From Acidobacteriota bacterium (lineage in GTDB: Bacteria; Acidobacteriota; Vicinamibacteria; Vicinamibacterales; 2-12-FULL-66-21): a stretch of DNA of 64,000 bases. The translations under genes and the position numbers were made by a program. Where the stretch lies: contig QHWT01000072.1 in NCBI GenBank assembly GCA_003222675.1, positions 29,110-93,109 on the forward strand, in the 5' to 3' direction. Under the pieces are notes generated by a model. It made no database searches, was not told where the DNA came from, and was given only the letters and a program-made list of their open reading frames with translations. Below, one piece after another: positions 6,092-48,920 of the stretch. Position 1 is the first letter of the stretch. Every line of letters begins with the position of its first letter.

Positions 6092-8911
6092 ATGAAGCCG
6101 ATTGCAACCCGCGCGTGGGTCGTCGCCGCGGCGGCCATGTTCTCGAGCGTATTCGCCGCCACTCAACCAAGAGTGCCGGCGGACCTGAAGGCCCGCCCTA
6201 GATCTGTAGGCCGGGTCTTCAGACCCGGCGATCACGCCGACGCGCAAGCGCCGCAACAATCACCAGCGGTCGACGAAGCGGGTGATTTTCTCAAGCGACC
6301 GCCCGTCGTCCGTCAAGAGCCCGCGGTGCAGCAGAAATTGTTCCTCCTGCCGCCTGGCTACAACATCGAGCTCGTCCTGAGCGATCCGGAGATTCAGGAT
6401 CCCGTTGGCGTCACGTTCGACGGAAACGGCCGGATGTACGTCCTCGAGATGCGTTCGTACATGCAGGACGCCGACGGATCGGGATCGCGACAACCGATCA
6501 GCCGCATTTCGCGTCACGAGGACACCGACGGTGACGGCGTCTACGACAAGCACACGGTGTTCGCGGACAAGATGGTGATGCCGCGCATCGCCTTTCCGCT
6601 CGGCGACGGCGTCATTCTCGGCCTCGAAACCGACAATCGCGATCTCTACAAGTACACCGACAGCGACGGCGACGGCATCGCCGACAAGAAGGAGCTGTTC
6701 TATCCGGGCTTCGGGCGCGTCACGAACATGGAGTGGCAGCCGGGCGGACTCACGTGGGCACTCGATAACTGGCTGTATTCGACCTACAACCCGTTCCGGC
6801 TTCGTATCGCGCCCAGCGGCAAGGTGCTGCGCGAAGAGACGGAGGCGAACGGCGGCCAGTGGTGGTCGGCGCAGGACAACTACGGCAAGGTGTGGTGGGT
6901 TGACGGCGGCGGCGAGATTGGCCCGGTGAATTTCCAGACGCCGATCGTCTATGGGGCGTTCAATGTTCCAGACAACTTCGAGCCCGAGTTCCAGGTGCCA
7001 TGGCCGGCGCCCGGCGGAATCTCCGACATGCAGGGCGGACTGCGCCGCCTCCGCCTTCCGGACGGCACGCTGAACCATTTCACTGCGGCGTCGGGCGTGG
7101 AAATCTATCGCGGCGATCGGCTGCCGCCGGATGCGATCGGGGATCTCTTCTTCAACGAACCAGTCGGCCGCATCGTCCGACGCGCGAAGATCGTGGTGAC
7201 GGAAGGACTCACGCAGCTGCGAAACGCGTACGCCAGATCAGAGTTCGTTCGATCGACCGATCCGCTCTTCAGGCCGGTCAGCATTTCGAATGCGCCGGAC
7301 GGCTCGTTGTACCTCGTCGACATGTACACGGGCATTATCCAGGACGCGCAGTGGGCCGGTCCGGGGACGTACCTTCGGAGAAAGATCGAGCAGTACGATC
7401 TCGACAAGCAGCACAACTGGGGACGGATCTGGCGGATTAGTTACGAGGGGATGCCGCTGGATCGCGGGCTGCCGCGCATGTATCAGGAGACGCCGGCGCA
7501 GCTCGTCGACCATCTGGAGCACCCGAACGGCTGGTGGCGCGATACCGCGCAGAAGCTGCTGGTTCTTCGTCAGGACAAGAGCGTGGTGCCTGCGCTGCGC
7601 ACCATGGCTCGCGCATCGGCCAACCATCTCGCGCGGATTCATGCCGTGTGGACGCTCGAAGGGCTTGATGCTCTCGATGCCGGTCTGGCACGGGAGTTCA
7701 TGAAGAGTCCCGATCCGCAGCTTCGCATCCAGGGCATCCGCGCGAGCGAGTCGCTCTACAAGGCGACACCCGGCGACAAGTCATTCGCAGCTGACTACCG
7801 CGCGATGACCCAGGATCCCGATCCCGGCGTGGTCATCCAGGCGATGTTGACGATGAATCTCCAGAGGATTCCGGATGCGCGGTCGCTGATTCGGACGATC
7901 GCCGACAGTAGCTCAGTGCGTGGTGTCAAGGAGATCGGCAGTCAATTGCTGCAGCCCCGTCAATCGCAGGGGCAGGGTCCCGCGTTGTCCGACACGGGAG
8001 CCGGCACGGTCAATTTCACAGTGGAGCAGCGCCGCTCGCGTCAGCGTGGCGAGACCATCTACAAGGAGCTGTGCGGCACGTGCCATGGGTCCGACGCGAA
8101 AGGAGCGCCGATGGCGGGGGCGGAGGGTGTCGCGATGGCGCCCGCGCTCGCAGGATCGCCACACGTGCAGGCGCATCGCGACTACGTCATCAAAGTGCTC
8201 CTCAACGGGCTCATGGGACCGATCGACGGCAAGGAGTATCCCGGGGGCGTGATGGTGCCGATGGGAACGAACACGGATGAATGGGTGGCGGACATCGCCA
8301 CGTACATCCGGAGCGGCTTCGGCAACGCTGCTGCACCGGTAACCGCCGACCAGGTGGCCGCGGTCCGGAAGGAATCGGCACGAACGACGCCGTGGACGTT
8401 CGCGGAGCTGGAGCCGCACATACCCGCGTTGCTCGCCAACACGTCCGCATGGAAGGTCAGCGCGAGCCACAACACCGAGGCGGCGGCAAACGTCCTTGGC
8501 AACGTGGGGCGCTGGGACACCGGTGCGCCGCAGCAACCGGGCATGTGGTTCGAGATCGAACTGCCGAACGACGTCACGGTTTCTGAACTGCAGATCGACA
8601 GCACCGTTCGCGGTCGGCCGTTATTTCCACCGGGCGGCGGCCGCGGCGCCGGCGCGACAGGTCGCGGCCGTGGCCGCGGCGCGTTTCTTCGAGCGATCGG
8701 CCCCGTGTCCTATTCCGTGCAGGTGTCTTCAGACGGGAGCTCGTGGGGACCGCCAGTTGCGCAGGGAGACGGTCAGACGCCGACCACCACCATTTCGTTC
8801 GAGCCGGTGCGCGCGAAGTTCATCCGCGTCACCCAGACCGGCACGGCAGAAAACGGCGAGGCCTGGGGCATTCAACAAGTCCGCATCTACGCGCTGCCCT
8901 CTCGATCCTGA
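6092..8911 (+). CDS. membrane-bound dehydrogenase-domain protein with HEAT repeats, c-type haem site and C-terminal F5/8 type C (discoidin)-like domain
   Basis: A 939-aa uninterrupted ORF. It contains LPPGYNIELVLSDPEIQDPVGVTFDGNGRMYVLEM, the haem motif CGTCHG, and a C-terminal WFEIELPNDVTVSELQIDS...IRVTQTG stretch. Confidence 0.8.
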   Translation: MKPIATRAWVVAAAAMFSSVFAATQPRVPADLKARPRSVGRVFRPGDHADAQAPQQSPAVDEAGDFLKRPPVVRQEPAVQQKLFLLPPGYNIELVLSDPEIQDPVGVTFDGNGRMYVLEMRSYMQDADGSGSRQPISRISRHEDTDGDGVYDKHTVFADKMVMPRIAFPLGDGVILGLETDNRDLYKYTDSDGDGIADKKELFYPGFGRVTNMEWQPGGLTWALDNWLYSTYNPFRLRIAPSGKVLREETEANGGQWWSAQDNYGKVWWVDGGGEIGPVNFQTPIVYGAFNVPDNFEPEFQVPWPAPGGISDMQGGLRRLRLPDGTLNHFTAASGVEIYRGDRLPPDAIGDLFFNEPVGRIVRRAKIVVTEGLTQLRNAYARSEFVRSTDPLFRPVSISNAPDGSLYLVDMYTGIIQDAQWAGPGTYLRRKIEQYDLDKQHNWGRIWRISYEGMPLDRGLPRMYQETPAQLVDHLEHPNGWWRDTAQKLLVLRQDKSVVPALRTMARASANHLARIHAVWTLEGLDALDAGLAREFMKSPDPQLRIQGIRASESLYKATPGDKSFAADYRAMTQDPDPGVVIQAMLTMNLQRIPDARSLIRTIADSSSVRGVKEIGSQLLQPRQSQGQGPALSDTGAGTVNFTVEQRRSRQRGETIYKELCGTCHGSDAKGAPMAGAEGVAMAPALAGSPHVQAHRDYVIKVLLNGLMGPIDGKEYPGGVMVPMGTNTDEWVADIATYIRSGFGNAAAPVTADQVAAVRKESARTTPWTFAELEPHIPALLANTSAWKVSASHNTEAAANVLGNVGRWDTGAPQQPGMWFEIELPNDVTVSELQIDSTVRGRPLFPPGGGRGAGATGRGRGRGAFLRAIGPVSYSVQVSSDGSSWGPPVAQGDGQTPTTTISFEPVRAKFIRVTQTGTAENGEAWGIQQVRIYALPSRS

Positions 8912-9038
8912 TTCCGGTCGTCCGTTTGCGCGGGAACTCGAATCGAGGATAGACTCGCGCGCGATCGACGGAATGAAATCGGCAAGATCCATGTGATCCG
9001 CGGTCACCGATCGCGCGCGCTTTTATCCCAGGAGTCCG

Positions 9039-10376
9039 TTGATGAAGAGCAGGCGCACGTTCCTGAAGAGGTCCGCCGCCGCCGTTGCCGTCACCGCAGC
9101 AAGACCGTTGTTCGCCTGGCAAGGATCCAACGATCGCATCCGCATGGCCGTCATCGGATGCGGGAACAGATCGGGACGCGTGTTCGATTCGTTCGCCCGC
9201 AGTGGACACGCGGACTGCCAGTTCGTCGCAGCGTGCGAAGTGAACAAGGCGAAGCTCGATCAATGGATGACGCCCGAGCGTCAGACGTTCAAACTGGAGA
9301 CACTCGTCGACTACCGCCGGATTCTGGACAGAAAAGACGTTGACGCCGTCCTGATTGCGACACCGGATCATTCGCACAGCAGGATCATGGTCGATGCGAT
9401 GGCCGCCGGTAAGGACGTCTACTGCGAGAAGCCCGCCTCGAATACGATCCCGCGCATCAACGCGATGCTCGACGCGTACCGCAAGGGCAGGCAGGTCGTG
9501 CAGATCGGGACGCATCAGCGGAGCTGGGATCATTTCGCCGAGGCAAAACAAATCATCGACGCCGGCACGCTCGGCAACATCACTCACGTGATCGTCGTGC
9601 AGCCGGGAACCTACGCACGAGCGAAGGAGCCGGAACAGCCCGTGCCGGCCGGCCTCGATTGGGATCTCTGGCAGCTCGATGCGCCGAAGCGGCCGTTCAA
9701 GCCGACGCGCCTTGGTTTCCGTGCGTGGTACGCGTACGGCAGCGGCCTCGTCGGCGATTGGGGCGCGCATCATGTCGACATCGCCCACTGGTTCATGAAC
9801 GCTGACAACAGGGTTCCGCTCCGGACATCGGCAATGGGTGCATTCCTCGCCGTGCCCGACGCGGATCCCGAGATGGTGCCGAGCCGTCCTTCCTCAATCA
9901 ACTCGTGCGCGTATGCAATAGCGGGAACGCGGCGGTAGTTGAACCACACCATCGTGCGGCGGCCGCGCGCGGCGTCAACCATCGCTTCCGCCTCGGGGAG
10001 TGACAACGCTCCGCACGTGATCCGAAAGCAGGGGCCGCCACCACCGCCGACGGCCGGCGGCGTAACGCTCGGCGCCGGCGGCGCAGCGATTGCGTCCGGC
10101 GCGCCGGGAGGGGGAGGCGGACGCGGCGGCCGCGGAAACCAACCGCCGATCGACGCAAAGATGTACGTGAATCCACGCGGTGGCGTCGAGGAGGATTACC
10201 CGCTCGACGTGCACACGCGGAATTTCCTCGACTGCGTGAAATCGCGGCGCAAGCCGAACGCGGACATGGAAATCGGCTATCACTCGGCGCTGCCGTGCCT
10301 GCTCGCGCTCGAATCGCTCCAGCAGGGCAAGCCGCTCGGGTGGGACTCTGATTCACGGAAGAGCACAATTCTCTAG
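9039..10376 (+). pseudogene. Gfo/Idh/MocA-family oxidoreductase with Tat signal, interrupted by the left copy of a 139-bp inverted repeat (stop at 9936)
   Basis: ORFs 9039..9938 and 9939..10376 are in the same frame. The N-terminus is MMKSRRTFLKRSAAAVAV...IRMAVIGCGNRSG...YCEKP. The family C-terminus YPLDVHTRNFLDCVKSRRKPNADMEIGYHSALPCLLALESL resumes after 10010. The combined length of 446 codons is typical for the family. Confidence 0.7.
9871..10009. repeat. left copy of a perfect 139-bp inverted repeat
   Basis: A base-by-base comparison shows 9871-10009 is the exact reverse complement of 10865-11003. The match breaks at both ends. The ORF 9770..10006(-) repeats the peptide LSLPEAEAMVDAARGRRTMVWFNYRRVPAIAYAHELIEEGRLGTI from gene 10544..11644. 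Confidence 0.9.
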
Positions 10377-10543
10377 CGGGCGAATCGCCCATCCCTGATC
10401 TCTGATCTGGGATCCCTGACCCTCGATCCATATCGCTGATCTCGATCATCGATGCTGGATCAGTGATCGTCGATCCCCGATCATCGATTTTGGATCGTGG
10501 ATTGTCGATTGGCGATTAGGGATGTCGGATCAGGGATCTAGGG
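10377..10543. repeat. GATC-dense low-complexity intergenic spacer
   Basis: I count 13 GATC tetramers by eye in about 165 nt (CTGATCTCTGATCTGGGATCC...GGATCAGTGATCGTCGATCCCCGATCATCGATTTTGGATCG...GGATCAGGGATCTAGG). It lies between the two Gfo/Idh/MocA genes and inside the 139-bp inverted-repeat pair. Confidence 0.7.
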
Positions 10544-11644
10544 ATGAACGATCGTTTGCTTCGCGTCGCACTGCTGGGACAAGGCTTTATGGGAAAGGCC
10601 CACTCGAACGCCTACGCCCAGGCGCCGCATTTCTACGACCTCCCGTTCCGGCTGCGGCGTACGCTCCTCTGCGGCCGCGACAAGACGTCGCTGGCGGCGA
10701 CGGCCAGTCGCTGGGAATGGGAAGAGATCTCCACCGACTGGCGGAGCGCGATCGATCGCAAGGACATCGACCTCGTCGACATCGCGCTGCCGAATTACCT
10801 TCACGCCGAGGTGGCCATTGCGGCGGCGCGCGCCGGCAAGATCGTCCTCTGCGAGAAGCCGCTCGCGTTGTCACTCCCCGAGGCGGAAGCGATGGTTGAC
10901 GCCGCGCGCGGCCGCCGCACGATGGTGTGGTTCAACTACCGCCGCGTTCCCGCTATTGCATACGCGCACGAGTTGATTGAGGAAGGACGGCTCGGCACCA
11001 TCTACCACTATGACGCGGCGTATCGTCAGCAGTGGGGGCCCGATCTCTCACGGGTCGGCTCGTGGAAGCTCGATCGCGCGCAGGCAGGATCGGGCGTCGC
11101 AGACGACCTGCTCACACACCTCCTCGACACGGCGCTGTACTTGAACGGCCCGGTGGCGGAGGCGATCGCCGTCTCGCGCACGTTCGTGCCCAATCGCGCG
11201 ATCGACGATGCGTTCGAGGCGATGATCCGATTCGACAACGGCAGCCTCGGGATGTTCGAAGCAACGCGCTTCGCGATCGGGTGCAGGAATGCCAACACGT
11301 TTCAGGTCCACGGCGCCGGCGGCATGCTGCGGTTCAATCTCGAGCGCCTGAATCACCTCGAGTTCTTCGATGCCACCCAGCCCGCGCTGGAGCAGGGGGC
11401 GCGCGATGTGCTCGTCACGGAGATGAAGCACCCCATCTTCGGCAATTTCTGGCGGCCGGGTCACATCATCGGCTACGAGCATACGTTCATCGCAGCGCTC
11501 GCGGAATTCCTCGAGTGCCTGGCGCGCGATCTCGAGTTCCATCCGGATTTCGCCGACGGCCTTGCTGTTCAGCGCGTGCTCGCCGCGCTGCAGCAGTCGG
11601 TCACTACAAGGCAATGGACGTCGGTCGCGGAGGCGCGGGTGTGA
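10544..11644 (+). CDS. Gfo/Idh/MocA-family oxidoreductase
   Basis: A 366-aa ORF starting with ATG at 10544. It has the Rossmann N-terminus RVALLGQGFMGKAHSNAY, the CEKPLA motif, and a typical C-terminal alpha/beta domain. Confidence 0.85.
   Translation: MNDRLLRVALLGQGFMGKAHSNAYAQAPHFYDLPFRLRRTLLCGRDKTSLAATASRWEWEEISTDWRSAIDRKDIDLVDIALPNYLHAEVAIAAARAGKIVLCEKPLALSLPEAEAMVDAARGRRTMVWFNYRRVPAIAYAHELIEEGRLGTIYHYDAAYRQQWGPDLSRVGSWKLDRAQAGSGVADDLLTHLLDTALYLNGPVAEAIAVSRTFVPNRAIDDAFEAMIRFDNGSLGMFEATRFAIGCRNANTFQVHGAGGMLRFNLERLNHLEFFDATQPALEQGARDVLVTEMKHPIFGNFWRPGHIIGYEHTFIAALAEFLECLARDLEFHPDFADGLAVQRVLAALQQSVTTRQWTSVAEARV
10865..11003. repeat. right copy of the perfect 139-bp inverted repeat (native coding sequence of 10544..11644)
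   Basis: It is the exact reverse complement of 9871-10009. It is in frame and makes sense as part of the intact oxidoreductase. Confidence 0.9.
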
Positions 11645-12987
11645 GAGTCATCGACCCCGTGCTGACGTCGAAGCAGCGGTGGACGATCGTCGGCCTGCTT
11701 TCGGCATCCATCACTATCAACCTGCTGGATCGTCAGGTGCTGTCGGTCCTCGCCTCCGAGCTCCGGACGCAGTTCCACTGGAGCAACGCCCAGTACGGCT
11801 ACATCGCCGTTGCCTTCAACGTCGGAATGATGTGTGGGCAAATCCCGGTCGGCGCGCTGATGGATCGCGTGGGAACGCGGATTGGTTTGACGATGATCTT
11901 TCTCGCGTGGTCCACGCTGAGCCTCGCCCACGGGCTCGCCGGACCCGGCACGCCGATCGAGGCGATCGCGACGGCGCTGATCTCCTGGATCCCGGGGCTT
12001 CCGGCGCTCGCGGCCGGGCTCGCAGGATTTCTGCTGCTGCGGTTCCTCATGGGCCTGAGCCAGTGCGGCAACTACACTGCGGGCATCAAAGCGCTCGCGG
12101 GTCTGTTTCCGGCGGAGACCCGGGCTCGCGCCGGCGGCGTCTTCAATGCAGGCGCGCAGTTCGGATCGGTCATCGCGCCTCCGATCGTCGTTTTCCTGGC
12201 CTCACGATTCGGATGGCGGATGGGATTCGTCGTTCCGGCCATCGTAAGCCTCGTCTGGCTGATCCCCTGGTTGGCGACATTCCCGGACAAGGAGACGATG
12301 GCGACGGCAGCGCTCAAACCCGCCGCTGCTCGGCCGGCCCTCCCGGAGATGACCGCGGCGATCTCCTTGGCGCGGCTGTTCAGGAATCGGAAAGTGCTCG
12401 GGCTATTTCTGATCCGGGTATTCTCGGGCCCCATCACCACCTTTTACTGGACGTGGCTGCCGCTGTATCTGCGCACCGGGCGCGCGATGTCGTTTCTTGC
12501 GCTGGGCTTCTTCGCCTCGGTTCCAAATCTGATCGGCATGGCGGGGAATGTCGCCGGCGGGCTGCTGACCGATCGGTTCGTCCGCGGAACGGCCGACGTC
12601 GATCGCGGCCGCAAGATCGCGTTCACCTGCGCATTCGCGCTGGGCGCGCTCAGCATGACGATGCCGTTCGTGGCGAACAACTATCTGGCGGTCGTGTTGA
12701 TGGGACTCGCGCTGTTCGGCAACCAGTGGGTCGCCGCAACGTATATCGGTACCGTGGGGGATGTCGTACCGCAGCAGCTCGCCGGCCGCGTGAACGGCAT
12801 CGCCGGAATGGGCGATAACGCTGCGGCGCTGCTCGCCGTCCTTTACACGGGACTCGTCGTCGATCGTTACGGGTGGACGCCGGTCTTCATCGGCGCCGGC
12901 ATGTTGCCGTTCTTCGCCATGCTGAGTGTGTTCGGCGTGCTCGGGAGGATCGAGCCAGCACGGTTCGAGGACGGCAGCGTCGCGTGA
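11614..12987 (+). CDS. MFS transporter (anion:cation symporter / hexuronate-type)
   Basis: This is the ORF 11032..12987 trimmed to the ATG at 11614 (a GTG at 11641 is also possible). It has about 12 predicted TM segments, including WTIVGLLSASITINLLDRQVLSVLASEL and GALMDRVGTRIG. Confidence 0.8.
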   Translation: MDVGRGGAGVRVIDPVLTSKQRWTIVGLLSASITINLLDRQVLSVLASELRTQFHWSNAQYGYIAVAFNVGMMCGQIPVGALMDRVGTRIGLTMIFLAWSTLSLAHGLAGPGTPIEAIATALISWIPGLPALAAGLAGFLLLRFLMGLSQCGNYTAGIKALAGLFPAETRARAGGVFNAGAQFGSVIAPPIVVFLASRFGWRMGFVVPAIVSLVWLIPWLATFPDKETMATAALKPAAARPALPEMTAAISLARLFRNRKVLGLFLIRVFSGPITTFYWTWLPLYLRTGRAMSFLALGFFASVPNLIGMAGNVAGGLLTDRFVRGTADVDRGRKIAFTCAFALGALSMTMPFVANNYLAVVLMGLALFGNQWVAATYIGTVGDVVPQQLAGRVNGIAGMGDNAAALLAVLYTGLVVDRYGWTPVFIGAGMLPFFAMLSVFGVLGRIEPARFEDGSVA

Positions 12988-13024
12988 GTGAATCCCACCA
13001 GTTGTCGCGGAAAGGGACTCCGAT

Positions 13025-14284
13025 ATGGATCGACGAACGTTCTTGACGGTCGCGCTCGGCGCACCGGCTGTTGTCCGGGTGGCCAAGGCAGATGTCCGAA
13101 CCGGTTCGCGGCCTGTGCCCTGGACACAGTGGGGCGGTCCACACCGCAATTTTCAAACCGAAGCCAGTGGATTGAAGGACACATGGCCGGCGTCGGGACC
13201 ACGGGTCGTGTGGAAGCGTCCGCTCGGCGAGGGCTATTCATCCCCCTCAGTCGAGAACGGCGTTCTGTACACGATGTACGGCAAGCCGCGCGAAGAGGTC
13301 GTTCTCGCGGCGAACGCCGACACGGGCAAGACGCTGTGGGAGCATTCGAATCCGATGACATTTCAGAGCGGCGCGCCTGAAAAGGGAAACGGACCGTATG
13401 CAACGCCTCTCGTCGTGGGCGACCGCGTCTTCACGGCAGGAGTCGCGGGCCGGCTCCAGTCCTTCGACAAGAAAACCGGGAAGCTCCTGTGGACGCAGGA
13501 GCTCTGGAAGGATCATCAAGGTTCGCAGCTGATGTACGGCTACGCGTCCAGCCCGATCGCGTTTCGCGAAATGGTCATCGTGCCAGTCGGCGGCGCCGGC
13601 AAGGCGCTGATGGCATTCAATCAGGCGGACGGCAAAGTGGCGTGGGCGAGGAACGACTTCGGCAATGTCTACTCCTCTCCGATACTCATCAATCTCGGAG
13701 GGCTCGAACAGCTCGTCGCATTGATGGATGGCGCCGTGCTCGCCGTGAATCCGCACAACGGCGATCCGCAATGGCAGGTGCCCTTCAAGGCGAACTATGC
13801 AATCTCGGTCGCAACGCCGCTGTGGGGCCCGGGCAACCTCCTCTTCGTGTCGGCGGAGTACGACGCCGGATCAAAGGTGATCGAGCTGCAGCGCAACGGC
13901 CAGCAGACGAAGGCCACGGAACTGTGGAGCTCTCCTCGGCTGCGGCTCCATCACGGCAACGCGATGCGGATCGACGACACGATCTACTTCTCGAGCGGCG
14001 GCAAGGGCAGCCAGGCGATTCTGAGCGCAGTCGATGTGCGCACCGGGAAGATCTATTGGCAACAACGCAGCATTCAGAAAGCGACGTTCGTGTGGGCGGA
14101 CCGGAAGCTGATCACGCTGGATCAGGACGGTAATCTGATGATCGCGCACCCGTCGCCGGAAGCATTCAAGATCTCGGCTCAGGCCTCGCTGCTCACGAAT
14201 TTGTCCTGGACGCCGCCGGTCCTGGTTGGCACGCGCTTGTACATTCGCGATCGCCGGAACATGATGGCCGTCGATCTGGGTTAA
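13025..14284 (+). CDS. PQQ-like beta-propeller repeat protein (BamB-like fold), secreted
   Basis: A 419-aa ORF with a Tat/Sec-like leader MDRRTFLTVALGAPAVV. It has repeated propeller blades (GVLYTM..., DRVFTAGVAGRLQSFDKKTGKLLW, ...LYIRDRRNMMAVDL). Confidence 0.75.
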   Translation: MDRRTFLTVALGAPAVVRVAKADVRTGSRPVPWTQWGGPHRNFQTEASGLKDTWPASGPRVVWKRPLGEGYSSPSVENGVLYTMYGKPREEVVLAANADTGKTLWEHSNPMTFQSGAPEKGNGPYATPLVVGDRVFTAGVAGRLQSFDKKTGKLLWTQELWKDHQGSQLMYGYASSPIAFREMVIVPVGGAGKALMAFNQADGKVAWARNDFGNVYSSPILINLGGLEQLVALMDGAVLAVNPHNGDPQWQVPFKANYAISVATPLWGPGNLLFVSAEYDAGSKVIELQRNGQQTKATELWSSPRLRLHHGNAMRIDDTIYFSSGGKGSQAILSAVDVRTGKIYWQQRSIQKATFVWADRKLITLDQDGNLMIAHPSPEAFKISAQASLLTNLSWTPPVLVGTRLYIRDRRNMMAVDLG

Positions 14285-25645: not shown

Positions 25646-27436
25646 ATGCATGCAACATTGCGACGTCCCTTTGTTCGCGGGCGATTCGTGGCGCTCGCCA
25701 TCGCTCTCGTATGGCTGGCTTCAGGGACTCACGGCTTTACGGCCCCAGCATCGGACGATTCCGGTACGCGGAAGCTCGATGCGCACCTGCGGCAGGCGAT
25801 CGATCGCGATGGCGACGATCTCGCCGAGCGCGTCATCGTCCAGGTCGAGGCCGGCGCGGCGGACAGCGTCGAGGCGGCGTTGAAGAGTCGCGGTGAAAAA
25901 CCGCTTCGCTACCATCCGGGCATCGGCGCATTCACGGTGCGTTCAAAGCACCTGCTCGCGCTTGCAAAACATCCCGGAGTCAAATCCATTTCCATCGACG
26001 CGCCGCTCGAGGCGCTTCAGATCGCTCCGCTGGCTGTGCTGACGACGGAACAGATCGTTCGCGATTCGGTGAGCATCTCGGGCACGTGGACGGGCGCAGG
26101 CGTCGGCGTTGCGCTGATCGACTCGGGGATCGAGCCGTCGGTCGACTTCACCGGGCGGATCAGCGCGTTCTACGACTTCACGCGAGGAGGGATTGCCACC
26201 GCGCCGTTTGACGACTACGGCCACGGCACCCACGTCGCGGGACTGATTGGCGGATCCGGAGTCCTCAGCAACGGCGCCTACGCGGGCCTTGCGCCCGACG
26301 TGAAGTTCGTCGTGCTCAAGGCGCTCAACAGCACCGGCGGCGGATACACCAGCGACGTCATCAGCGCGATCGAGTTCGCGACGGCAAACCGCGCGGCGCT
26401 CGGCATCGATGTGATGAACCTGTCACTCGGTCATCCGCCCTTTGAGAGCGCGTCGACCGATCCGCTGGTGCGGGCAGTTGAAGCGGCCGTCCGCGCCGGC
26501 ATCGTCGTCGTGGCCTCCGCGGGCAACTACGGCCGGAACGCCACCACGAACGAGATTGGATACGGCGGAATTGCGTCTCCCGGCAACGCGCCGTCGGCGC
26601 TGACGGTCGGATCATTCATGACCGAGGACACACTGCGCCGGTCCGACGATCGCATGAACGGATTCAGCTCGCGCGGTCCGTCGTACTTCGACGCGTTCGC
26701 CAAACCCGACATCGTGGCGCCCGGCTACAAGCTGATCGCAAACGCGGCGAAGCAGAGCACGCTCTACAACACATACCCCAGCCTGCGCGTGTCGGGTACA
26801 AGCGGCGGCGATTACATGATGCTGAGCGGCACCAGCATGGCGGCTGGCGTGACATCGGGCGTCGTTGCGCAGCTGATCCAGGCGAACCGTTCGACGAACC
26901 TCACGCGCGCGCTGCCGCCGAATGCCATCAAGGCGGTGCTGCAGCATACAGCGCTGCGCTTGCACGATGACACTGGCGCGGAATACGACGCGATGACTCA
27001 AGGCGCGGGCGCCCTCAACGGCGCAGGGGCGATCAACTTTGCGCGCGGCGTCAAGAACGCGACTGCGGTCGCTTCATCATGGCTGGACGCCGCGTTGTCG
27101 CCCGATCCCGGCTCGTCAACGATCGACGGCGAGACGGTGGTCTGGGGGAACACGGTCGTGTGGGGCAACACCGTGGTGTGGGGGAACACCATCGGCATCA
27201 ACCAGGCAGCCTGGGCGAACACCGTCGTCTGGGGCAACACGGTCGTCTGGGGAAATACGGTCGTGTGGGGCAACAACGTCGTGACCGATAACACGGTCGT
27301 CTGGGGCAACACGGTCGTGTGGGGCAACGCTGTTCTCGAGGGCAACACCGTCGTCTGGGGCAACAACGATCTCAGTGGCGCGACGGCGAGCAATGCCGTG
27401 CTCGGGAGCAACACGCTGATCAACGCGGTGCGCTGA
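25646..27436 (+). CDS. secreted S8-family (subtilisin-like) serine peptidase with C-terminal NTVVWG hexapeptide repeat domain
   Basis: A 596-aa ORF with a signal peptide. The catalytic triad contexts are VALIDSGI, HGTHVAGLIGG and SGTSMAAGVTSG. Confidence 0.85.
   Translation: MHATLRRPFVRGRFVALAIALVWLASGTHGFTAPASDDSGTRKLDAHLRQAIDRDGDDLAERVIVQVEAGAADSVEAALKSRGEKPLRYHPGIGAFTVRSKHLLALAKHPGVKSISIDAPLEALQIAPLAVLTTEQIVRDSVSISGTWTGAGVGVALIDSGIEPSVDFTGRISAFYDFTRGGIATAPFDDYGHGTHVAGLIGGSGVLSNGAYAGLAPDVKFVVLKALNSTGGGYTSDVISAIEFATANRAALGIDVMNLSLGHPPFESASTDPLVRAVEAAVRAGIVVVASAGNYGRNATTNEIGYGGIASPGNAPSALTVGSFMTEDTLRRSDDRMNGFSSRGPSYFDAFAKPDIVAPGYKLIANAAKQSTLYNTYPSLRVSGTSGGDYMMLSGTSMAAGVTSGVVAQLIQANRSTNLTRALPPNAIKAVLQHTALRLHDDTGAEYDAMTQGAGALNGAGAINFARGVKNATAVASSWLDAALSPDPGSSTIDGETVVWGNTVVWGNTVVWGNTIGINQAAWANTVVWGNTVVWGNTVVWGNNVVTDNTVVWGNTVVWGNAVLEGNTVVWGNNDLSGATASNAVLGSNTLINAVR
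27131..27361 (+). repeat. in-frame 18-bp tandem repeat (about 13 units, consensus AACACGGTCGTGTGGGGC = NTVVWG)
   Basis: The peptide reads ETVVWGNTVVWGNTVVWGNTIGINQAAWANTVVWGNTVVWGNTVVWGNNVVTDNTVVWGNTVVWGNAVLEGNTVVWGNN. It lies within the S8 peptidase ORF. Confidence 0.85.
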
Positions 27437-42635: not shown

Positions 42636-42763
42636 GCTTCAGGCCTCGGGCTTCTGGGGCCTCGGGCTTCTCGGGGTTCGGGCTCTAGGCCCGGGCTGCT
42701 GGCGCTTCGGTTTTCGAGCCGCGCGCCTGAAGTTCCCGAAGCCTGAAGCCCGAAGCCCGAAGC
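42636..42763. repeat. long palindromic GGCTTCAGGC/GCCTGAAGCC REP element between convergent genes (probable bidirectional terminator)
   Basis: The left arm GGCTTCAGGCCTCGGGCTTCTGGGGCCTCGGGCTTC faces the right arm GAAGCCTGAAGCCCGAAGCCCGAAGCC. Confidence 0.7.
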
Positions 42764-43957
42764 CTAATCAATCTCGATGATTCCCCAGCTCTTCTCGCGC
42801 TCGGGCGGCTGTCCACCGGCAAGCGCGAGCGCGGGCTCCGCGAGCGGAAGCCGCGCCTGCATGTAGCTGTGGAGCTCGCGCGCGATTTCTTCCTCCGTCG
42901 GCGGCGCGGGCCGGCAGTGGAGCCGCACCCACACGCGCAGGACCGGATCCGCGAAGCTATACCGCTTCATGCGCGACACGATCAGGTCGACATCCTCGAG
43001 CCACGAGAGATAGTCCTTGGTGGATCCCGGCGTGCGGCGAAGGCGCTGCGCGATCTCGGTGAGCGTCAGCGGCTCTTCTTCCGACAGGACCTCGAGGATG
43101 GCCTTGAGCGCGCCATATCCGCGCGCGCGGTGGAGACGAAGCTCATAGCCGTAGCGGCACGCCTGCGTGAGCTGACCGCCCGGCGCCAGCAGCGCGGCCA
43201 GCGCGCCGACCGGATCAGGACCACCACGAGACGCCATCGAGACGGCGGTCTCCGCGATCGCGCGCGCATATGACGGCCGGCCATCCGAGAGCGCCTGTAC
43301 GAGCCGGGCGAGCTCGTCGCGCTCGCGATCCTGCTCTTCTTCGTTGCCGCGGATTCCGTGCTCCTCGCCGTGGGCGCCCGGCAGCGTGGCGCGAATCTCC
43401 GCCGCCGACAGCGGCGCGGCATGAATGATCTCGAACGGCGCCGGTGCGTCGCGCAGCAGCCGGTGCGCGCGGGCCGCGTAACGCGTGGTCAGCACGAACC
43501 GGTTGCCGCTCGTGCTGAGCGCGCCAATCAGGTCGCGCAGCACGCTGCGCAGCCCGGGGAAGCTCTCGAACGTGCGCAGCTCGAGGAACTCGTCGAGCAG
43601 GAACGTCGCGGGCGCACCGCTGGCCGCGCGCGCGGAGTCGAGGAAGGCGAGCGCGGCATCGAACGCATCGCGCGCGCCGGGCTCAGCTCCCGCGGCCGCG
43701 CCGTACGGATGCGCCGGGAATGGAGAGGCGTCGCGCAGCGAGCGCAGGAACCGTTCGGGCGTCGTGGCGATTCGCTCGACATCGACGTATTGCGCCTGCG
43801 TGCGGCCGATCAGATCGCGCAGGCGGAGGAGCAAGGAAGTGCGACCGGATCCACAGCCGCCGAGAATCACCGGAATTCTCGGCCCGGCATTGCCAGCGGA
43901 TCCGTCGAGCGCGGCGAGCACGCGGCGCTCGAGCGAGGGGCGCTCCGGGATCATCAT
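42764..43957 (-). CDS. AAA/Arch_ATPase-type P-loop protein with C-terminal winged-helix domain
   Basis: This is the ORF 42764..44068 trimmed to MMIPERP at 43957. It has the Walker A motif [14 protein letters not shown], a Walker B-like FLLDEFLEL, and the C-terminal w[33 protein letters not shown]. Confidence 0.7.
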
Positions 43958-47479: not shown

Positions 47480-48784
<1,305 letters not shown>

Positions 48785-48920
48785 GGCTCAGGCTTCGGGC
48801 GTCAGGCTTCAGGCTTCGGGGCTTCAGGCCCCGGATTTCCACGTTGCCGCATTCGCGGCTCCGTTTCGCGCGAAGCGCGACCAGACGCCTGGAGTCCGAA
48901 GCCTGAAGCCTGCAGCCGGC
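48785..48920. repeat. second copy of the GGCTTCAGGC/GCCTGAAGCC palindromic REP family between convergent genes
   Basis: The left arm GGGCTCAGGCTTCGGGCGTCAGGCTTCAGGCTTCGGGGCTTCAGGCC faces the right arm GGAGTCCGAAGCCTGAAGCCTGCAGCC. Confidence 0.7.

Follow-up and report, generated by a model that had tools for sequence, protein, structure and literature searches.

Two genes for oxidoreductases of the Gfo/Idh/MocA family follow each other on the forward strand of the analysed DNA, a stretch of 64,000 nucleotides here called the window. Both products show the N-terminal NAD-binding Rossmann domain together with a C-terminal domain of the family (Pfam). The upstream gene (gene 1) matches PF01408 (1.3e-17), PF19051 and PF22725 and begins with a twin-arginine leader (SRRTFLK), and the downstream gene (gene 2) matches PF01408 (1.6e-21), PF02894 (2.6e-21) and PF22725 (1e-26). 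A scan of genome contigs with the gene 1 N-terminus gave ~41% identity as the best value among the matches listed. The features of the locus are the following.

9042..10376, + strand: gene 1, Tat-signal Gfo/Idh/MocA oxidoreductase, broken in the deposited contig (Pfam, flanks of the native protein P0121)
9871..10009, no strand assigned: left arm of the inverted repeat, exact reverse complement of 10865-11003
9871..9880, + strand: left junction with the 10-nt microhomology AGATGGTGCC, codons E-M-V-P (three-way comparison)
9936..9938, + strand: in-frame TAG from antisense filler, terminating the annotated 298-aa PYR90095.1
10009..10010, no strand assigned: right junction, a blunt join with zero microhomology and a mismatched terminal base
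10377..10543, + strand: intergenic spacer made up of degenerate GATC heptads, folding into a single long hairpin
10544..11644, + strand: gene 2, intact cytoplasmic Gfo/Idh/MocA oxidoreductase of 366 aa, PYR90097.1 (Pfam)
10865..11003, + strand: right arm and source of the copy, coding natively for residues 108-154 of gene 2, where the Rossmann domain ends

The two arms are 139 nt long, 100% complementary and separated by 855 nt. A repeat search and a base-by-base comparison confirm what a preliminary description of this DNA had claimed, namely an exact match over 139 bases that stops sharply at either arm end. Measured from the right end of the left arm, the right arm is at 856-994 nt, and the outer span of the repeat is 1,133 nt (1,166 nt in native DNA). 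Besides this pair no inverted repeat longer than 42 nt occurs in the window, the next best being 37-42 nt long at 71-73%. A perfect pair of 139 nt far exceeds what chance would give.

The frame 9039-10376 is open save for the one TAG. In the public record the product of gene 1 is PYR90095.1 (P0115; locus tag DMF84_21580), a protein of 298 aa annotated as 'MAG: hypothetical protein' of an Acidobacteria bacterium and encoded on a contig of 171,943 nt that belongs to a metagenome-assembled Acidobacteria genome at NCBI. It was found at 100% identity by a protein search with gene 1 in which the repeat-encoded part had been masked, and its C-terminus is the antisense-encoded tail ...EMVPSRPSSINSCAYAIAGTRR, ending at the same TAG. 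Since this public protein has the antisense tail, the repeat belongs to the assembly as deposited and is no planted sequence. Overwriting a stretch by an exact reverse complement of roughly matching length does resemble a scripted edit, but the swap shifts the length by 33 nt and begins at a microhomology, and that the repeat was introduced into the window or the sequence corrupted after deposition has a practically negligible probability.

A second protein (P0121, from JGI/IMG and MetaClust, 455 aa) belongs to the same 90% cluster as PYR90095.1. It is identical to gene 1 on either side of the swap and has the 54 residues DSFSIAWVYDNFLMTFANGEIYMSDGIENWGVFFIGNRGSLQVNRQGYAVRPIV in place of the 43 codons, stop included, of the window. 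In the same kind of search more than 100 homologues of gene 1 at 60-87% identity proved to be full-length throughout (417-481 aa), and the truncated product of 298 aa was found solely in the NCBI record. For four out of five products of neighbouring genes, exact copies were found in JGI, Logan or ENA assemblies as well.

The same clone has been assembled independently several times. Five loci were found with the gene 2 product (from Met16) and two further ones (L090, L091) with the product of an upstream gene of 939 aa; these seven contigs or scaffolds represent five other assembly datasets from at least four samples or runs. They are given below with the positions at which they break, counted in gene coordinates (ATG of gene 1 = 1).

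L081: ENA SAMN08902856, scaffold_4 (144 kb); left part to 953, then N10 and 119 nt of foreign coding DNA, native again from 967
L082: JGI 3300026315, Ga0209686_1000861; start at 953
L083: ENA ERZ27286001, k141_301165; start at 958
L084: Logan SRR5207237, SRR5207237_69913; start at 929
L085: ENA SAMN08902844, scaffold_18856; left part to 989, then N10, sequence again from 1031
L090: JGI 3300026315, Ga0209686_1002187; end at 945
L091: Logan SRR5207237, SRR5207237_552328; end at 951

According to blastn, six of the seven loci have no mismatch to the window in the 3.7-7.6 kb of flank that they cover, and the seventh (L085) has nine mismatches in 3.7 kb of the left flank and none in the right flank. 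On the right side the only apparent mismatches are at 10006 and 10009, both within the end of the left arm. In every locus agreement with the window ends exactly at 9880 or begins at 10010. None of the seven contains the left arm, and wherever they cover the stretch in question they have native DNA in place of the filler. The two left-side contigs L090 and L091 continue for 106-112 nt beyond 9880 as native sequence, and L085 and L084 can be joined by an identical overlap of 61 nt to give a gene that translates exactly to P0121. Each of the five independent loci that extend over the right arm has a single copy of it, at 100% identity. Independent assemblies of the same population thus fail to reproduce the sequence of the left arm. 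The GATC-heptad spacer is identical across all independent assemblies; it is real and not connected with the anomaly next to it.

These loci settle several points of the preliminary description. It had regarded the right copy as native to the intact gene 2, which agrees with the Pfam domains and with the single copy in the independent loci, and the left copy as an overwrite of gene 1 that creates the TAG at 9936, which agrees with the otherwise open frame and with the native DNA of the other assemblies. It had also proposed to recover the native DNA of gene 1 from orthologous loci in related genomes; the other assemblies of the same clone supply it, as 172 nt that encode the corresponding part of P0121. 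The supposed in-frame, length-preserving substitution is correct as to the frame only, as 172 native nt are replaced by 139 nt in the window (net -33 nt). Retention of the frame after a loss of 33 nt is a one-in-three chance. Finally, 446 codons had been considered as normal length; the native protein has 455 aa, whereas the window offers 444 codons counted from the ATG.

The geometry of the repeat had additionally suggested a recombination-invertible segment. In such a phase-variation switch recombination between the arms would flip 10010-10864, a segment running from the last part of gene 1 across the spacer into the first part of gene 2, and perfect inverted arms do bracket 855 nt with the upstream region and the 5' end of gene 2. 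A length of 139 bp is sufficient for RecA-dependent recombination. Yet the left arm is not found in the natural population as sampled, and the segment has the orientation of the window in all five loci that cover it. Moreover, a flip would interrupt gene 2 at 11003, gene 1 would stay defective, and no alternative product arises. Domains of recombinases, integrases or transposases were not detected by Pfam in the open reading frames scanned (window 73-23,051) or in the called genes of L081. The segment resembles invertons of the Hin, Gin and FimBE type in having inverted repeats around a segment that holds a gene start, but it differs from them in arms ten times the usual length, in the absence of a recombinase gene from the 1-23 kb scanned, of a second orientation and of one arm in nature, and in the lack of a functional alternative upon inversion. 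In the orthologous loci L086-L089 the order of gene 1, gene 2 and a gene for an MFS transporter is the same, gene 1 is intact, and no inverted repeat exceeds 34 nt at 71-76% complementarity. A functional invertible segment is therefore hardly credible.

A three-way comparison of the junctions reveals how the foreign piece is joined. The native order is CCCG, AGATGGTGCC, 162 nt and TCCGCAC, and the order in the window is CCCG, AGATGGTGCC, 129 nt (reverse complement of 10865-10993) and TCCGCAC. The motif AGATGGTGCC is native to gene 1 and also occurs as the reverse complement at 10994-11003 in gene 2 (antisense of G-T-I). As it is already present in native gene 1, only 129 of the 139 nt of the left arm are foreign to this gene, and these bases (9881-10009), a filler not present in the natural population, replace 162 native nt (gene coordinates 840-1001). 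At the right junction the window reads CAACGC|TCCGCAC versus native CATCGT|TCCGCAC, with four of six bases matching in front of the join. Gene conversion between the two paralogues was rejected as an origin of the copy, which is antisense and lies at a non-homologous position (the counterpart in gene 1 is at ~9425-9570).

The left junction has the appearance of a template-switch mutation. Short microhomology is a classic mark of polymerase template switching, and here 10 nt of it lie exactly at the left junction where, by a rough estimate, ~0.002 chance matches are expected in a 2-kb neighbourhood. In this course of events the nascent 3' end at 9880 would anneal via AGATGGTGCC to the complementary strand at 10994-11003, 129 nt would be copied, and gene 1 would be rejoined 162 nt downstream, leaving a pseudogene and an inverted repeat of 139 bp. 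An inverted copy of nearby sequence does replace local sequence here, as in quasi-palindrome or MMBIR-type events. The deposited contig is continuous through both arms, and IDBA-UD with k up to 200 could resolve a real repeat of 139 nt (PMC6784897). Against this stands that seven contigs of the same clone, from five independent assemblies, lack the allele, and that six of these contigs have no SNP in the flanks. Microhomology is not found at both switch points, the return junction having none and a mismatched terminal base. The distance to the source matches the fragment size of the library and the 1-kb pool of reads used in repair. The perfect identity of the arms means that the event cannot be old, and a switch would need to have hit, by coincidence, a stretch of ~100 nt where every other assembly breaks. 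Compared with known template-switch mutations (quasi-palindrome correction, fold-back priming, MMBIR/FoSTeS), the nearby inverted copy and the microhomology at the first switch are alike; the copy is, in contrast, long (129 nt) and distant (~1 kb), the return occurs without microhomology, and the allele is in no other assembly. We therefore regard a genuine, very recent template switch (fold-back or cross-fork) in a sub-population of one sample as unlikely. Its specific form, a switch days to years old in one soil sample, in which a replication fork or broken end switched to the opposite strand ~1.1 kb away so that gene 1, encoding a conserved periplasmic oxidoreductase, was pseudogenised and the start of gene 2 became flippable, is quite improbable. 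If real, it would be merely a single, ordinary pseudogenising rearrangement, whose 139-bp repeat could flip the start region of gene 2 by homologous recombination.

The positions of the breaks point in another direction. All seven other contigs show a break, a gap or a misjoin between gene coordinates 929 and 1031, within ~100 bases of the same spot. The two Logan contigs L084 and L091 overlap by 23 nt, which means that native DNA is continuous in run SRR5207237. Breakage caused by coexisting native and repeat alleles was considered and rejected: the breaks lie inside the native segment and not at 9880/10010, so they are not due to a coexisting repeat allele, and the left contigs from Logan and JGI run through 9880 without a branch. 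In L081 the foreign piece joins at GTGAACCGCC, which suggests k-mers common to other members of the community. Distant orthologues share an exact match of 29 nt inside the replaced segment, but also one of 32 nt elsewhere in gene 1, and such shared k-mers support repeats between genomes as the cause of the breaks only weakly.

The genome set was derived from 60 soil samples of the Angelo meadow; reads of 2x250 nt were hard-trimmed to 200, with an inter-read spacing of 500 bp corresponding to fragments of ~1 kb, and assembled by IDBA-UD 1.1.1 (mink 30, maxk 200) with scaffolding (PMC6784897). 'Scaffolding errors ... corrected as previously described' (PMC6784897) refers to a procedure in which reads mapped to the 1-kb region flanking an error are re-assembled by Velvet and unfixable regions are replaced by Ns (Anantharaman et al. 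2016, PMC5079060). Local assembly errors were described as 'particularly prominent in IDBA-UD', with 13 of them in a genome of 1.13 Mb (Chen et al. 2020, PMC7111523). The arm of 139 nt is shorter than a 200-nt read, and its source, 856-994 nt away, is near enough to fall within a ~1-kb fragment and within the 1-kb pool of repair reads. The read library or the pipeline can account for the filler.

Thus, the left arm is very probably a local assembly or curation/repair error in a short-read MAG and absent from the DNA of the organism, and the inverted repeat of 139 nt is most likely no biological feature. An assembly chimera had been listed in the preliminary description among the alternatives, and it is the reading favoured by the evidence. 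The error may have arisen as follows. Gene 1 is intact in the natural clone, as the other assemblies show, and its codons ~310-345 are a place where short-read assemblers break, probably due to sequence common to co-occurring relatives. The IDBA-UD contigs of the deposited assembly presumably broke at this site too, and the hole would then have been bridged in the wrong orientation by 129 nt whose source, either reads or a local contig, lay ~1 kb further downstream on the same fragments. Candidate forms of the inserted piece are a chimeric fold-back molecule, the tip of a contig end or a Velvet patch, held on the left by the coincidental match of 10 nt. On the right the next contig would have been butt-joined without Ns and with a spacing error of 33 nt. 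The scaffold writer of IDBA shortens the following contig whenever its distance estimate falls below zero. Since a k-mer join requires more than a microhomology of 10 nt (k at least 30), a real chimeric molecule, formed in vivo or during library preparation, may have seeded the error. Judging from the assembled sequences, read support for both junctions is presumably absent. Native and right-arm reads would tile the junctions at two mismatches or fewer, helped on the left by the match of 10 nt and on the right by the 4/6 similarity, and given such tiling a test for zero coverage would pass over the region unflagged.

Local and scaffolding errors described for IDBA-UD (PMC7111523, PMC5079060) also affect a short region at a contig join, a presumed one in the present MAG, with a consensus that is not reproduced elsewhere, and here a MAG of the same pipeline, a broken gene and a break point in other assemblies come together. 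The present case differs in that joining of a reverse-complement copy from ~1 kb away at a 10-nt match is not described in these two papers, where insertion of a reverse-complemented piece is not documented as a step of IDBA-UD or of the repair script.

When a pipeline produces a perfect inverted repeat, checks based on coverage can miss it, and in genome scans it can be mistaken for a phase-variation switch. Exact inverted copies that are shorter than the read length, lie within one fragment length of their source and occur where other assemblies break should be distrusted in such screens. For the organism this would mean that its public MAG holds a falsely truncated protein in PYR90095.1 (298 aa, 'hypothetical protein'), and that the true product is probably a conserved Tat-exported Gfo/Idh/MocA oxidoreductase of 455 aa.

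Between gene 1, the Tat-signal Gfo/Idh/MocA oxidoreductase gene that is broken in the window, and gene 2, its cytoplasmic counterpart, lies a spacer built of short tandem words, which can be compared with the equivalent intergenic position in two relatives (loci L089 and L086).

Window 10377-10543: intergenic spacer from gene 1 to gene 2, about 21 degenerate tandem heptads, GATCnnn
L089 5381-5597: equivalent spacer, heptads GGTTCnn, then GAACCnn
L086 5384-5453: equivalent spacer, short, GGTTCG-type

GATC sites number 13 within 150 nt of the window spacer, versus 10.4 per kb window-wide. The GATCnnn heptad spacer is real sequence, because it is the same in every independent assembly of this clone. 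It is predicted to fold into a single long hairpin (-87.9 kcal/mol, z -5.7), and for the L089 spacer, whose heptads are GGTTCnn/GAACCnn instead of GATCnnn, likewise a single long hairpin is predicted (z -5.85). Judged from these predicted folds, the word changes between the window and L089 while the hairpin structure is kept.

Further repeats are found elsewhere in the window.

42642-42764: short period-7 tandem array
48784-48829: second short period-7 tandem array
27110-27371: 18-nt-period repeat, about 13 copies, within the ORF 25646-27436

The two period-7 arrays, across which the words CCCGAAG / GCTTCGGG and TCAGGCT occur, both sit between convergent genes and may belong with the gene 1/gene 2 spacer to one type of intergenic heptad-hairpin element. 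The 18-nt repeats encode tandem hexapeptides of the G-N-T-V-V-W type.

L081, a 144-kb scaffold assembled independently from the same strain, likewise has an error at the gene 1 site, of a different form from that in the window.

L081 5258-5386: misassembly at the gene 1 site, N10, then 119 nt of foreign coding DNA
L081 1309-1408: N100 gap elsewhere in the scaffold, with 55 nt (window 6146-6200) duplicated on its flanks

A word-indexed protein search with a 56-aa query, the first 26 residues of which are the C-terminal tail of the truncated gene 1 product PYR90095.1, missed this very protein. Negatives of such searches with short queries should not be trusted.

The gene neighbourhood is conserved in the relatives L086, L088 and L089; Gluconate_2-dh3 and 3-keto-disaccharide-hydrolase genes are additionally present in relatives.

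Window 6092-14284: DUF7133/cytochrome-c protein, Tat Gfo/Idh/MocA, cytoplasmic Gfo/Idh/MocA, MFS transporter, PQQ-like beta-propeller

The neighbourhood resembles a sugar-oxidation cluster.
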